NCBI GenBank assembly: GCA_965649765.1
Contig: OZ287752.1
Location: forward strand, 18,848,001 to 18,912,000
Length of the DNA stretch: 64,000 bases
Origin: Bispira polyomma
Taxonomy: Eukaryota
Reading direction: 5' to 3'
The notes under the pieces are model-generated. The model was not told where the DNA came from, did not search any database, and was given only the letters and a program-made list of their open reading frames with translations. Within the stretch, counting starts at the first letter, position 1. The number at the start of each line of letters is the position of its first letter. Positions 45,401-51,500 of the stretch are shown here, in pieces. The position numbers and the translations under genes were made by a program.

Positions 45401-45596
45401 TCATGGCCTGATGTTTGCATATGATTTCTCCTCTAGCTGGTCTGGTATCTTTGCCACATTCTCATATGTAGATATGTCTGCTGTTGCTACAGCTCTTTTA
45501 GTAGGTTTATCCATTGTGTTAAGTTGGTGTAGCAGTGAACTGAAGCTGGGTCTCTGATCAGGGTTATATTCCCAGCATGTTGTCATCAGCTCATAT
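45401..45596 (-). CDS. Copy A last exon: kinase subdomain XI + tail (STYENV, SYANI)
   Basis: [18 protein letters not shown] tyrosine-kinase signature. Confidence 0.92.
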
Positions 45597-48500
45597 CTAA
45601 ATAAATATAAATGGCCAACAGAAACATGCAAACCATGTACATTAGTTTTCTTTGTTGTGTAGCATTACACAAAGGGGTTTATGGTTGTTTAGAAAGACAT
45701 TACCTTTGTTTATTTTAGTAATAATATGAACAATTTGATGCAAAATTTAATGCTTTCCAAGGTATAATGTTAGTAGTTGAGATGACCAATAACCGATTGA
45801 CAGATTATTCATATCTTGTTACCTTAAGCTGAGCATAAGATGTATAAAATACTGTTGTAGTGTTCGTGTTTACTGTCATAGTAAGCAAACTTGTGGATTG
45901 ATGGATTAATATTAATGTACAAAAATTTTTTTTCAAAACAGTTAACCTTTTTATATGTATATTTTTGTTGTGTTCTTTAATCAAGCCAAAACGTTTGATA
46001 TTTTAATGTATTTAGGGTCACTTACCCTTAGACTGAATCTCTGAACAACTTTATGATATATATAAATATGTCTACAACTAAATTCCATAGTAACGCTTGA
46101 TATTTTGATGTATTTAAGGTCACTGGCCCTTAGACTGAATCTCTGAACAACCTTATGATATATATAAGTATGTCTACAACTAAATTCCATAGTAATTTAA
46201 AAGCTATCGCTCCACACATATAGATAATTTTATTCTAAATAGATTTTTATATGGGTCAGAAAAACTGGCTAAAGCCTCTTACTGATTGACTGTGATTATG
46301 TGCAAGCAAATGTCCTCTTTTGTTATAATGGTTTCCTAAAGCTCTCGAACAATGTAGTATAATCACGGTAATTGATGACATTGAAATCATGGCCTGTATA
46401 TCTGTGTTAATTAAAATACCATATCATTTAGAAATTACTTACATCTTTACTGAACAATCAGATGGTTTCTTCAGAGTGTTTGCAGTTTTAACATATGCCT
46501 TGACATCTTCCTCAATCATACCGTCATATGGGACCCTTCCTGTTAATTTAAGTAAATATCATTACAGGAATCATCTCGAAGTGTACCACAGAAAACTATT
46601 TTTTATAAAATATAGATAGAAATATTTATATATATATATATATATATATATATATATATATATATACTACATATTTACCTAGAGTATATATCTCATATAG
46701 TAGAATTCCAAAAGCCCAAATATCAGATTTCTTTGAATGAGCTCTACAGTCTTCAATAACTTCCGGTGCTTTCCACTGTATTGGTCCATAGATCTGGTTA
46801 AGGAAAACACATTATATACAAATAACTGTACTATTAAGTGTACAAAATATAGAAATAATTTGTCATAAAACAAGATAGTTGATTATACATTGACCATGTA
46901 AGTGTATTTTGGTTAAACTTAAATATACTTCACCCCTTCATCTTCTTCTTTGATCTCTCTCTGAAGAACATGCTCCTTGAATCCAAAGCCAGTCAGTCTA
47001 CACGACTCACTGTCATCAACTAGCACATGTTCAGCTGATAGTTGCAAATGTAAGATTTCATGCTGAAAAATTACAATCGCATACCATAATATATACTTAC
47101 CAACAAATTTCATGGCAGCAAATGTTATGCACAAAAGAATACAATGACAAGAGTTCAATATCTAGATTGTCAAAAAATTGAAATAAATATTACATATCCA
47201 GTACGAGCCAAGAGCCTATTGCTGTTGTTTTATACACTTATACTAACAGAAACTGAATATATTCATACACAAAGGAAATTTATATCACCGGGACATTAAT
47301 ACATACAGTATCATCATTTACTTTGAATAAAAGTCAATTCTCAAAATTGCCGTAAATATAAAATGGATACTGTCCCGATAATTTCATATAGCATGATTAC
47401 TTCTTCAAAATGTCTAACACTAATGGTGTGTATAGGATATCTAGACTGGGATATATTCAAGATGTAGGCACTGGAGACCATGCGGTGGTATAAATTCCAC
47501 TATAGTGTTTCATGAATCAGTTACTGGACATTGAATTATGACATTTCACTATTCTGCAGCAATATTTACAGAAGGATAAAATAATAACAAAGATCAAACA
47601 TTGATATACCTAAGCAATGTGTTAAGGAATTATTATGTGTCTTGTATTTACTTACACTTTGTCGTTCTAAATATGCAAGTCCCTGTAAAGTATGAAACAT
47701 CAGTTTCTTCAGAAAGCTGTTCTTATTTGGATAGTGTACCCAGTCTTCCAGTTTACATCTTTGTTGCAAGAACTGCCTCAGGTCTCCATTTTTGTAATAT
47801 TTTGTAACAACTTTAATACTCATAGGACCTAATGATATCACAGTAAAATGATACAATTAAGTTATAGTTTCGGTTATTAACCTTACTAAAACAAGCTAGA
47901 TTCTGTCTCAGTAAAATTTAGTTTTTGCAGTATACAATTAATATGAGTGAAAATATGTTATTTGATTATTTCAAGGCTGGTAGGAATGGTGGGCATGGAC
48001 TTACTTAAACATTTTAAGTTTTACCTTTAGTAAAATAGTTAAGACTTTGACATATCCAACTATTTGTTTAACGCCACCTTTCATCATGCCATTCACATGT
48101 ACACAATTGGCTAATAGCCTCAGAATTAGGATGCATCATTATTCTGCTAAACTATGAACATATACTGATGATAAATATAACAACTTCATTATATAACACT
48201 TCACAAATACACTGATGGTTATTTAGTTGTGAATTAAACTTCTACACCGTGTCTAAGTTAAAACAATGTTGCATACCTGTAATACCAAATGCGTATGATT
48301 CAATAATCCCTGGATGACTGCCAACTTGCTCTAAACAGGTGACTTGATTAAAAATGAACTGAGCCTCAGAAACTCGAATATCATCTGTAATATTAATTTT
48401 ACAAATTTGTTTTAGTGTTTAATTGAGTCTCAGGCTACTTCTACTTCTTTGTTTCACATATTTTGTATTAGCAAAGTTAATCATACTTTACATCAATTTC

Positions 48501-51500
48501 TATTGTAACTGCATTACCGTGGAATGATTTCACCATCACGGAGATTTGTTTGCCTTGCGTATTTAACAATCCCATTTTCAGCAAGCTATATCGGCCTTTA
48601 CTAATTAAGTTTCCCATTGTCAAATCATGATCATCATGCACAGCTATATGTCTTGATTTTCTGATATCTTCATAGATCACAGTCTTTACAAAATAGAATA
48701 AAAATATATACTGCGGAGCTGGAAAATTTCATTACAACAAATATATATGATTATAAAACTTTTTGGTCATCATGGTTACTATATACTGGACTGAAATTGT
48801 TCACTTTTTTGTAGTGGATATTATTTTGATCCATTGAAGTAAAAAGATTAATTGACTTGCCTCATTGGAAGTAAAACCAGCTGATGTATTTATCACTTTC
48901 AAGTCCTGATACTCTGGCGAATTCTCTTGAATATCATTCTTGTCCAGGTCTTCATAGTGCAAGTCAGTAGAGTCACTGAATACATTCATGTATACTGGCG
49001 GATGTGTGGACTCGTCATTCTCTGCTGCATATTTTCTATTATTCTAATTTGATGTACAGCATGTTTAAATACTTATCTTTACGATGATTTAAGTTAATAA
49101 CATTGGTCTTACTGGAATTTTAATTATATGTGTTAAATTCTTTAATTAATGTGTGTTCCACACTGATTTACAAAATATAATAATAAATTTTATCCAAAAT
49201 GTTACCTTTCTGTTTCGCCGTTTCTTAAAAAAACACACAAGCAGCATGATTACAGCTGTCAATATTATCACAACAATCACGACAGCAACTATTACAGCAA
49301 CTGGAGAGTTCCATTCATCACCAGGAACTACTTTTAAATAGAAACATATTTCATTCATTACAATTCATCATTAATAACAAAAATAAAAATTACTCATTGA
49401 ATTATAGGATATGATAGGAATCTTTAAGAAGAGATACTGTTCCTTGATGTTAAACAGAATTGCTGCTAGTAAGGGGGACCTGAGGGATATTGTGAAGGCG
49501 GTGACTCTGAAGGAAGCCCTCTACATGATTGTAGACTCCTGGAATGTGATTTCTGAGGGAACTGTGGAGAGAGTATGAAATAAAACTTTATTTCCTGACA
49601 AAAACAACAACACTGATGCTCATGATGACAGTGAGGATGATGTGCCACTGATTGAACTGCATAATCTATTGCAACAGAAAAGAGTGGACATCAACACAGA
49701 GGAGGTGTCAGAATGGCTTAATGAAAATGAACAGCTGAACACATTTACCCCCTTAACCGATGAGGTAATCATACAGACTGTGAGCCAGCCTGTAAGTCAG
49801 CCGTCTGATAATGAGAGTGACTCTGAGAGTGAAGATCCTGCTGAGAAACCTTGCACCAATACTGAAGCAGTGAACCACTTAGATAAACTGCTCCAGTATT
49901 ATGAGGAACAGCCAGAGATTGACATGATGCACATGTCTGTACTCAGATTGTTAAGACAACAAACTTTAAACAAAAGTGCCATTTCTAAAATCCAAAAAGA
50001 CATACGGCTTTTTTTGCAGTAATTTAAGACTGTAATTTTAATGGTAATTGTTTTGTCGTCAAAAAAAATGTCAGTTAGAATTAGGGACACTCGTAAATGT
50101 ATATATATGTATCATATTGGTTGTTTTTTTTTGTTTATAATGTGAGTTTCTCTTCATCTTAACTTTATACTTTTAAAGGTAATGTTTTCTGTGTATTTAA
50201 TTTAGTCAGGCTCTAAATTGTTTAATGTTCATGTAGAGATGTCATCCTACTGAGCGATAATGTAAATAAATATATCTCCCGAAGTGTTGATGGTTTGGCC
50301 CTCCACTTTCATCTCTTCTGTTATCCGACTCTTCTATTATCCGACCATATTACGACTCTCCCTTCAAGGTCAGATAAGGATGCCCCTGTGACCTTGTACT
50401 TGAAAATCTTATCTGGGCTGTATTTTGGCAACCGTAAGGTGGAACAAGTTCAAACTTGGCAGGGATGTTCCTTATGGAGTCTAGTTGTGCAACGTCATGG
50501 TCTGACCTCAGTTTGACCTTGCCTCTGTGACCTTGGACTTGATTATCTTGTCCAGACTGTATCTTGGCAACCGTAAGGTGGAACTAGTTCAAACATGGCA
50601 GGGATGTTCCTTATGGGGTCTAGTTGTGCAACGTCATGGTCTGACCTCAGTTTGACCTTGCCCCTGTGACCTTGGACTTGATTATCTTGTCCGGACTGTA
50701 TCTTGGCAACTGTAAGGTGGAACAAGTTCAAACTTGGCAGTGATGTTCATTAGAGAGTCTAGTTGTGCAACATCATGGTCTGACTTCATTTTGACCTTGC
50801 CCCTGTGTTCTTGGACTTTAAGTCGGTAACCCACTAATACATTATAAAGGTTCGTAACTTTTTGCTGAAAAATTAGTGCTCTTATCTTACTACTGTATTT
50901 TTTATTTAATACATTATCTTCACATATATTTTCTCTTACTGAAGTGTTTGCTCCTATACCTTTATATAACTTACACTTTGTGACCAGTACATGCAGCGCG
51001 TAACTTTTAAAGAATAGTCTAAATTTTCATTTATTTTTTATCCCATCCAAAAATATGCGATCATTATTGATATTAAACAATTTAAATTTTTAAAATCCAG
51101 TTATTTTTTTTAACATCTATTATCTCAGAAACGGTGCTAGTTAGAGCGATTTCGAGCTCATTTTTTACCCACCTAGCTAATTTTGCTGATGTGTCAACTT
51201 TTTAAAAATTTCGATTTTGGTGGTCACCTTCAATTTTTACGTCTTTTTCGAAAACGTCCTTTATCTCCGAGACGGTGCTAGAAAGAGCAATTTCGAGCAT
51301 ATTTTCAACCCACATGATAAATTTTACTGATATGTTAACTTTTTAAAAAAAATTTCGACTAAAAGAGCTGATTCTGATTATATGTCATCAAAACAATGCT
51401 GATTCCTATCAGTCCACCATCTAGGGGTTGTAGGATAGAGGTGGTGTTCTTTGGTAAAAACAGAGTGGTTATTTTTCCATCACTGGTAGTGAGCTGCTGT

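Follow-up and report, generated by a model that had tools for sequence, protein, structure and literature searches.

Within the window, the whole 64,000-nucleotide stretch of DNA analysed here, the minus strand carries a receptor-like gene, gene A, modelled with predicted splicing as 12 exons in the order Ig–FN3–FN3-like–transmembrane (TM)–kinase. The spliced frame encodes 710 aa, has no stop or frameshift across the 12 exons except the terminal stop, and joins the ectodomain, a single TM helix and a tyrosine-kinase-family domain. The I-set exon is the most 5' exon found, and the remaining ectodomain must fall outside the window. A Pfam scan gave no matches for the second membrane-proximal domain; its atlas matches (0.77–0.83) include FN3 clusters but all lie below 0.9 and serve as a lead only. 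The ectodomains of the FGFR and RET families proper consist of three Ig domains or are cadherin-like, and the I-set, FN3 and FN3-like domains of gene A do not match them. A retroelement lies in a gene A intron (55441-61567).

Gene A has a tandem paralogue, copy B, consisting of about nine Ig exons (V-like, C2-type and I-set) and a kinase remnant. Counterparts of the FN3, TM, juxtamembrane (JM) and first kinase exons of gene A are absent from copy B. Its kinase exons carry stops and frameshifts, and stop or frameshift damage also affects its Ig exons, at 26860-26862 and near 26035. Copy B was therefore rejected as an intact secreted decoy, its V exon being 5'-truncated as well. A third V-set gene also lies in the tandem cluster.

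Table 1. Coordinates of gene A, its tyrosine motifs and copy B within the window
Feature	Position	Strand	Location or basis
Copy B, tandem paralogous pseudogene	11106..36786	minus	Self-BLAST 76-87% nt; missing exons; stops/frameshifts
I-set Ig exon	62019..62327	minus	Pfam Ig_3/I-set, below cut-off; phase 1-1, AG/GT
FN3 exon	53917..54192	minus	Pfam fn3 E=2.6e-12; splice sites
Second membrane-proximal domain, FN3-like	53325..53585	minus	Weak assignment; in frame
TM exon, basic stop-transfer stretch at end	49206..49327	minus	Sequence
JM exon, 183 nt, YMNV/LHYEDL/YQDL	48861..49043	minus	GC content, GC donor score
Tyrosine pseudokinase domain, seven exons	45521..48623	minus	Pfam PK_Tyr_Ser-Thr; Lingula identity
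Kinase exons	48518-48683, 48277-48384, 47656-47828, 46934-47062, 46679-46793, 46443-46539, 45401-45596	minus	
Last exon, STYENV and YANI	45401-45596	minus	Stop codon 45401-45403
YMNV (YxN and YxxV)	48981..48992	minus	JM exon
LHYEDL (strict ITIM pattern; first half of ITAM-like pair, Asp at -3)	48945..48962	minus	JM exon
YQDL (second half of ITAM-like pair, 11-residue spacer)	48900..48911	minus	JM exon
VIYEDI (strict ITIM pattern)	48663..48680	minus	Start of exon 48518-48683
STYENV (YxN; ITIM only in loose form)	45455..45472	minus	Last exon
YANI (YxN and YxxI), two residues short of stop	45410..45421	minus	Last exon

The kinase domain and its relatives

An earlier note on this DNA had described the kinase as dead, and the sequence bears this out. 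The Gly loop reads SKGRYS, the β3 Lys is retained (VMVK), the αC Glu is replaced by Gln, the HRD Asp of the catalytic loop by Gln and the DFG Asp by Gly (giving GFG), and the catalytic Asn is also lost. Loss of one or more of the β3 Lys, HRD Asp and DFG Asp is reported to define a pseudokinase (PMC8454701), and gene A falls within this definition. Pfam PK_Tyr_Ser-Thr matched four of the five scanned kinase-only or kinase-tail exons, with no match in the first kinase exon.

Across 248 kinase and tail codons, dN/dS between gene A and copy B is 0.40 (bootstrap 0.25-0.67), a value that does not separate which lineage was under selection. Synonymous divergence between the two (0.20) is similar to that of their introns (0.13-0.21). 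By this measure the dead kinase is under purifying selection and not decaying; being conserved, it is not vestigial. The STYENV and YANI codons are identical in copy B, and the tail motif cores are identical at 8/8 positions compared with 16/27 remaining tail residues (P=0.03, or 0.08 with six positions), a modest degree of conservation seen against one young pseudogene.

Single-exon PDB searches failed to resolve a family for the kinase. The nearest kinase-bearing relative is Lingula anatina XP_013390179 (‘Kit-like’), whose kinase is 32% identical over 273 columns (E=4e-41) and whose top PDB matches among solved structures are FGFR1-3 and RET; through these matches, grouping of the gene A kinase with FGFR/RET-like invertebrate RTKs is the best explanation. 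Both proteins have an Ig...I-set-FN3-TM-TK layout (I-set/FN3 33% identical), YxxΦ motifs on both sides of the kinase, a degenerate Gly loop and loss of the DFG Asp (NFG in Lingula). Unlike gene A, the Lingula protein retains the HRD loop and αC Glu, lacks the second FN3-like domain and has three flank tyrosines rather than seven; on the sequences compared, it is too distant for orthologue status.

Word-index searches covering longer proteins only yielded no significant orthologue among 10 candidates for the last exon or 21 for the FN3-like exon. An index-free search with the FN3 exon was swamped by multi-FN3 proteins, with best single-domain FN3 matches of 43-48% and no orthologue of gene A among the best 150 of 1,345 matches. 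A search seeded with an Ig-FN3-TK relative narrowed 5,124 candidates to three matches, of which one was both new and useful. Invertebrate FN3-bearing FGFR-like RTKs likewise count among the nearest comparisons, the atlas neighbours being FN3-TK clusters of cnidarians, chordates and arthropods.

Tyrosine motifs flanking the kinase

All six tyrosine motifs listed in the earlier note are present on the minus strand in the frame of one spliced model. The YxxI/L/V pattern is found at 6/7 tyrosines outside the kinase compared with 2/13 inside, and when the 88-aa JM and 39-aa tail were shuffled, at least six such motifs arose in 3/100,000 shuffles. The three YxN sites previously proposed (YMN, YEN and YAN) were likewise counted; at least three occurred in 1,830/100,000 shuffles of the same regions.

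The ITIM and ITAM readings stood in part. In published accounts the ITIM is defined as I/L/V-x-Y-x-x-I/L/V (PMC12582321), with S also permitted at the first position (PMC9546547). Three of the seven flank tyrosines fit the loose form, as claimed, at least three of which were seen in 84/100,000 JM and tail shuffles. Only LHYEDL and VIYEDI (2/7) fit the strict form, which STYENV misses, and the narrowest form, ending in L/V, is matched by LHYEDL alone. The ITAM is variously given as YxxL/I x(6-9) YxxL/I (PMC9546547) or D/ExxYxxL/I x(6-12) YxxL/I (PMC6994640). The proposed YEDL-x11-YQDL pair, with Asp at -3, passes the looser definition and fails the 6-9 one, the spacers in gene A being 11 and 16 with no pair spaced 6-8; a single pair with a 6-12 spacer, counted alone, arose in 1,141/100,000 JM and tail shuffles. 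Apart from YQDL, only one motif tyrosine is preceded by two acidic residues within five positions, and no acidic residue precedes YMNV over that distance.

Common to all six motifs is the pattern Y-x-N/D-V/L/I. The +2 residue is N or D in 6/6, an outcome seen in 0/100,000 shuffles for a pattern picked post hoc. As read from their residues, the six motifs are one generic pattern, with no division into activating and inhibitory types, and SH2 partner assignments made through consensus patterns are weak. YxxΦ occurs in 15/26 across related lophotrochozoan Ig-FN3 receptors, so YxxΦ-rich tails are common there; Yx[N/D/E]Φ occurs in only 4/26 across the entire comparison set.

YxxΦ is also the consensus for sorting signals. 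With 6/6 motifs fitting it and the kinase dead, the motifs could be mainly unphosphorylated signals for adaptor-complex endocytosis of a ligand-scavenging or decoy receptor. This is improbable, as six copies over both flanks exceed what sorting requires and N or D at +2 in every motif, albeit a pattern picked post hoc, would better suit SH2 docking.

The JM exon accounts for three of the motifs and has a GC content of 0.39, which is exon-like, against 0.22 and 0.26 for the introns on either side. It requires a GC donor, whose consensus match of 7/8 is the top of 15 candidates, and its acceptor is middling (pyrimidines 7/14). The splice sites, the pseudogene neighbour, the intronic retroelement and a 5' end beyond the window would fit a gene that is itself decaying, or a JM exon that is unused and an array that is partly a gene-model artefact. 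Against this stand the 12 exons without stop or frameshift, where copy B has several, together with the exon-like composition and top-ranked donor; shuffling the 522-nt region produced a frame of the same length carrying three motifs of this kind in 328/20,000 shuffles. Decay or artefact is therefore judged hardly likely.

Signalling mode and possible roles

Gene A is probably a single-pass Ig/FN3 receptor tyrosine pseudokinase that would signal as a scaffold after phosphorylation in trans. This part of the earlier proposal stands as the best inference because the kinase lacks catalytic residues, is still conserved, and is flanked by tyrosines in non-randomly SH2-type contexts. Upon ligand binding or clustering, the flank tyrosines would be phosphorylated in trans, either by a Src-family kinase or by a partner RTK that is active. 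Grb2-type SH2 domains would be expected to bind at the three YxN sites, and SH2 domains of the Src, Syk or SHP type at YED(L/I) and YQDL. The dead kinase fold may serve as a spacer, as a dimer interface or as an allosteric partner.

Such a mechanism would be of the HER3/EphB6 type on a lineage-specific receptor. HER3 and EphB6 are reported as receptor tyrosine pseudokinases that are phosphorylated in trans and recruit SH2 proteins, a group that also includes EphA10, PTK7, ROR1/2, RYK and STYK1 (PMC13259870, PMC8454701). As these are described, gene A shares with HER3 and EphB6 a single-pass receptor, a kinase fold without catalytic residues and JM or tail tyrosines, trans phosphorylation being known for those two and proposed for gene A. 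Unlike them, gene A has an Ig and FN3 ectodomain, an FGFR/RET-like kinase lineage, a place in a tandem cluster and six Y-x-N/D-Φ motifs spread over both flanks; its β3 Lys is present, whereas that of EphB6 and EphA10 is reported lost (PMC8454701). On present evidence gene A appears to be no orthologue of HER3, EphB6, EphA10, PTK7, ROR1/2, RYK or STYK1.

The contrast drawn in the earlier note, which likened the receptor to immune receptors and set it apart from growth-factor RTKs, is not supported. Docks of the YxN and YxxΦ kinds are present in growth-factor RTKs too. HER3 and EphB6 work in the same way, Grb2 sites of EGFR are reported to be YxN motifs (PMC3507883), the kinase of the Lingula relative is FGFR/RET-like, and the ITAM-like pair falls outside the 6-9 spacing. 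A dead-receptor scaffold is already known from growth-factor receptors. If the scaffold reading is true, a lineage-specific receptor tyrosine pseudokinase with an architecture unlike the eight human ones is added, and the HER3/EphB6 solution would have reappeared within an Ig-FN3 RTK cluster of an invertebrate, a useful but unsurprising result.

The tissue role is a separate matter: an immune or recognition role can be put forward tentatively, a developmental or adhesive one about equally so, and other roles make up the remainder. A developmental or adhesion co-receptor would resemble HER3, EphB6 or PTK7 as partner of an active RTK feeding Grb2-Ras-MAPK; most of its tyrosines would then descend from an ancestral RTK that was active. 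The three YxN sites suit this, as do the FGFR/RET affinity of the Lingula kinase and the Lingula flank tyrosines, of which 3/3 are YxxΦ, one before the kinase and two after; the first lies 24 residues ahead of the Gly-loop glycine, compared with 26 for VIYEDI. However, homology to those tyrosines was not significant (2,802/10,000 shuffles for tail position; automatic alignments put the JM in the wrong place), gene A has an additional motif-rich JM exon (88 aa of JM versus 47 aa), no active partner RTK is present within the window, and local duplication and decay would fit fast-evolving recognition genes. A co-receptor of this kind is plausible but short of probable.

A reading in line with the earlier note, a true haemocyte immunoreceptor with a Syk-binding ITAM, SHP/SHIP-binding ITIMs and a vestigial kinase, draws on the two strict ITIM patterns, the pair fitting the 6-12 ITAM (PMC6994640), the tandem cluster with its pseudogene copy and third V-set gene, and the V- and C2-type Ig domains of copy B. 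There are also precedents in oyster, where CgIgR is reported with an ITAM of spacer 8 and Syk (PMC6994640), and CgNCAM1 with three Ig domains, FN3, two ITIMs and SHIP2 (PMC11841013). Like these molluscan Ig or Ig-FN3 receptors that signal through tail tyrosine motifs, gene A carries such motifs; in contrast, the cited accounts describe haemocyte data and no kinase domain, while gene A, described here from its sequence, has a kinase fold. Cluster, pseudogene copy and oyster precedents leave an immune role possible. As a full account the immunoreceptor is nevertheless rather unlikely, given the 11-residue spacer outside the 6-9 ITAM (PMC9546547), one generic pattern in all six motifs, a conserved kinase, and the identical docking logic reported for HER3, EphB6 and EGFR.

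The JM exon, of phase 0-0, could be skipped in frame. Gene A might then be an intermediate between RTK and immunoreceptor: a recognition receptor of haemocytes, derived from an Ig-FN3 RTK cluster undergoing duplication, in which catalysis was lost and a motif exon acquired, with the symmetric GC-donor JM exon as a splice switch; this seems improbable. Inclusion of the exon, with its ITAM-like pair and one YxN, would give an activating Syk/Grb2 form, and skipping would leave VIYEDI, STYENV and YANI in an ITIM-leaning form. The putative switch is akin to Botryllus FcoR3/4, reported to exchange motifs through splicing (PMC12582321). The Hydractinia Alr and Botryllus FcoR allorecognition families are described as clustered IgSF receptors whose tyrosine motifs are ITAMs, ITIMs or of a generic core type (PMC9546547, PMC12582321); by description gene A is alike in cluster, IgSF domains and tyrosine motifs, and unlike in its kinase domain, which those accounts do not describe. 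If the immune, splice-switched reading were true, RTKs and ITAM/ITIM receptors, usually separate classes, would be joined in one molecule and the origin of invertebrate tyrosine-motif receptors would become testable; an intermediate would mark one path by which lophotrochozoan RTKs could give rise to tyrosine-motif receptors that have no kinase.

Copy B contains nothing that corresponds to the four pre-kinase motifs. The lophotrochozoan Ig-FN3-TM proteins Mytilus coruscus CAC5402594 and Haliotis cracherodii XP_071095565 resemble gene A in a related membrane-proximal FN3 and tyrosine-rich tails but, unlike it, are without a kinase and have more varied motifs. The named relatives found are mainly lophotrochozoan.

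Gene model and tyrosine array

The window consists of AT-rich animal DNA (GC 0.30-0.41), and the tyrosine motif array lies in the cytoplasmic exons of gene A, a predicted minus-strand receptor gene. The model joins 12 exons into a single frame of 710 residues with a terminal stop only, in the order I-set, FN3 (Pfam E=2.6e-12), FN3-like, transmembrane (TM), juxtamembrane (JM, 88 residues), tyrosine-kinase-family domain (268 residues) and tail (39 residues). The FN3-like domain had no match in a Pfam search, and the 5' end of the gene lies beyond the window. Ten of the 11 introns are GT-AG, the exception being the GC donor of the JM exon.

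All six motifs of the earlier note (YMNV, LHYEDL, YQDL and VIYEDI before the kinase, STYENV and YANI after it) were present where it had placed them and in frame in the predicted gene. Outside the kinase six of seven tyrosines have the form YxxI/L/V, compared with 2 of 13 inside it. When the JM and tail were shuffled 100,000 times, at least six YxxI/L/V arose in 3 shuffles, at least three loose ITIMs in 84, at least three YxN in 1,830 and an ITAM pair with a 6-12 spacer in 1,141. The +2 position is N or D in 6/6 motifs, a pattern picked post hoc that occurred in 0/100,000 shuffles. The array is real rather than a product of chance. The pseudokinase activation segment holds a seventh candidate, IYGPI; the exon before it ends in an acidic run, with three acidic residues within five upstream.

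The JM exon, which holds the ITAM-like pair (YEDL and YQDL) and one YxN, has a GC content of 0.39 against 0.22 and 0.26 in the adjoining introns. Its donor matches 7/8 consensus positions, the best among 15 candidates, and when the 522-nt region was shuffled 20,000 times, a frame of equal length containing three motifs of this kind turned up 328 times. It looks like a genuine exon. Three in-frame acceptor options exist (49043, 49019 and 49010), all upstream of YMNV. Given its length and phase, in-frame skipping is possible, and a hypothetical skipped form would retain VIYEDI, STYENV and YANI. Motifs swapped through splicing are described for Botryllus FcoR3/4 in passages of PMC12582321.

Features in and around gene A
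Feature	Coordinates	Strand	Remarks
Open V-set Ig exon	5154-5630	-	Pfam E=4.9e-6
Copy B	11106-36786	-	tandem paralogue of gene A
Gene A stop codon	45401-45403	-	end of 12-exon frame
IYGPI	46776-46793	-	gene A
JM exon	48861-49043	-	183 nt, phase 0-0, GC donor
DDE_1 (pogo/Tigger-like) DNA transposon remnant	49579-51800		basis 51362-51592; intron preceding gene A TM exon
Tyrosine-recombinase retrotransposon	55441-61567	-	RT, RNase H-like, integrase-family ORFs
Gene A I-set Ig exon	62019-62327	-	first of the 12 exons

Pseudokinase and predicted signalling

In an alignment with Lingula anatina XP_013390179 (32% identity, E=4e-41), the gene A kinase retains the beta3 Lys and one Gly-loop glycine, while the alphaC Glu is replaced by Gln, the catalytic loop reads HLQLSAEH with Asp and Asn gone, and DFG has become GFG. 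Section 15 of PMC8454701 judges pseudokinases by such losses. With these four residues gone the kinase is dead by sequence, in line with the earlier note. Gene A is predicted to encode a receptor tyrosine pseudokinase that is specific to its lineage and carries a real array of phosphotyrosine-type docking sites.

Because self-phosphorylation would be lost and SH2-type tyrosines are kept, the receptor most likely relies on another kinase. Receptors would cluster, a Src-family kinase or partner RTK would phosphorylate the tyrosines in trans, Grb2-type domains would dock at the three YxN sites, and domains of Src, Syk or SHP type at YED[L/I] and YQDL. This course of events is considered fairly probable; the sequence features are observed, and phosphorylation, partners and tissue are inferred.

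The proposal of a scaffold phosphorylated in trans thus stands as the best inference, whereas its contrast with growth-factor RTKs is not supported, as HER3 and EphB6 work likewise (PMC13259870 and PMC8454701). That gene A is an immune receptor appears rather unlikely. In favour of such a role, reported oyster systems include Ig receptors signalling through ITAM-Syk (PMC6994640) and Ig-FN3 receptors signalling through ITIM-SHIP2 (PMC11841013), and the cluster around gene A contains one pseudogene and also another V-set gene; however, the scaffold mechanism is shared with HER3 and EphB6, and the Grb2 sites of EGFR are likewise YxN motifs in passages of PMC3507883, which also give pYEEI as the Src SH2 ligand. 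The ITAM-like pair, with its 11-residue spacer, falls outside the 6-9 spacer definition in the relevant passage of PMC9546547 but fits the 6-12 form quoted in PMC6994640. Two of the claimed ITIM patterns are strict by the definition found in PMC12582321, and STYENV qualifies only if Ser is permitted.

Among the literature matches listed there was no report of an RTK pseudokinase that carries ITAM/ITIM motifs in an invertebrate; subscription papers fell mostly outside this coverage, and supplementary kinome tables could list relatives. Passages of PMC8662651, PMC11999971 and PMC4883820 contributed no specific point. For amphioxus, PMC8211107 reportedly deals with Lck and with an LRR receptor that is inhibitory.

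Copy B and neighbouring elements

Copy B shares 76-87% nucleotide identity with gene A, carries stops and frameshifts in both kinase and Ig exons, and is a pseudogene in both halves. It has no counterpart of the gene A FN3, TM, JM and first kinase exons; its I-set exon region adjoins the second kinase exon region almost directly (junction ~16255-17049). Across 248 codons aligned in the kinase and tail, excluding three copy B stop codons, dN/dS was 0.40 (bootstrap 0.25-0.67), and synonymous divergence was near that of six non-coding stretches. The gene A kinase is not simply decaying. The two tail motif cores of four residues each are identical at 8/8 positions in copy B versus 16/27 elsewhere (P=0.031; P=0.083 counting Y, +2 and +3 alone), with a 9-nt deletion between them. 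For the conservation among paralogues raised in the earlier note this gives modest support, limited to the tail motifs and to one young pseudogene.

The V-set exon probably opens a third member of the cluster, which extends past the window's left end. The retrotransposon lies within the gene A I-set-to-FN3 intron and has split direct repeats (93-97% identical), a layout we take to be DIRS/Ngaro-like. An ORF at 49579-50022 (+) had no match in a Pfam search.

Relatives of gene A

Searches with the last, FN3-like and FN3 exons found no gene A orthologue. A TM segment was predicted in 17 of the 150 FN3-exon matches listed. Motifs were counted in six named invertebrate proteins, four from these 17 (Mytilus, two Haliotis and Mya) plus the Lingula kinase and one member of the Gigantopelta cluster; the remaining matches were left out, among them phosphatases, frog neogenin and records without a name. 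Their cytoplasmic non-kinase tyrosines fit YxxI/L/V/M in 15/26 cases (12/26 without M), Yx[N/D/E]Phi in 4/26 and a loose ITIM in 2/26, one Haliotis tail stopping at a probable fused-model junction. Tyrosine-motif tails are thus common in this Ig-FN3 receptor class, and those of gene A are more uniform.

In the Lingula protein all three flank tyrosines are YxxPhi, one before and two after the kinase, the former 24 residues from the Gly-loop glycine compared with 26 for VIYEDI of gene A. Similarity between the two tails was not significant (2,802/10,000 shuffles). Although annotated as a receptor tyrosine kinase, XP_013390179 has NFG for DFG, making it unsuitable as an active-kinase control, and a degenerate Gly loop; it is therefore possibly catalytically impaired as well, and loss of activity may be recurrent in this RTK group. 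Its best solved-structure matches were a 678-residue entry labelled EGFR, then FGFR1-3 and RET, and its atlas neighbours were FN3-TK clusters of cnidarians, chordates and arthropods. Haliotis cracherodii XP_071095565 resembles two tandem Ig-FN3-TM receptors fused in a single model, and its second tail, with terminal ITIM-like and ITSM-like motifs, comes nearer than gene A to a classical inhibitory receptor.
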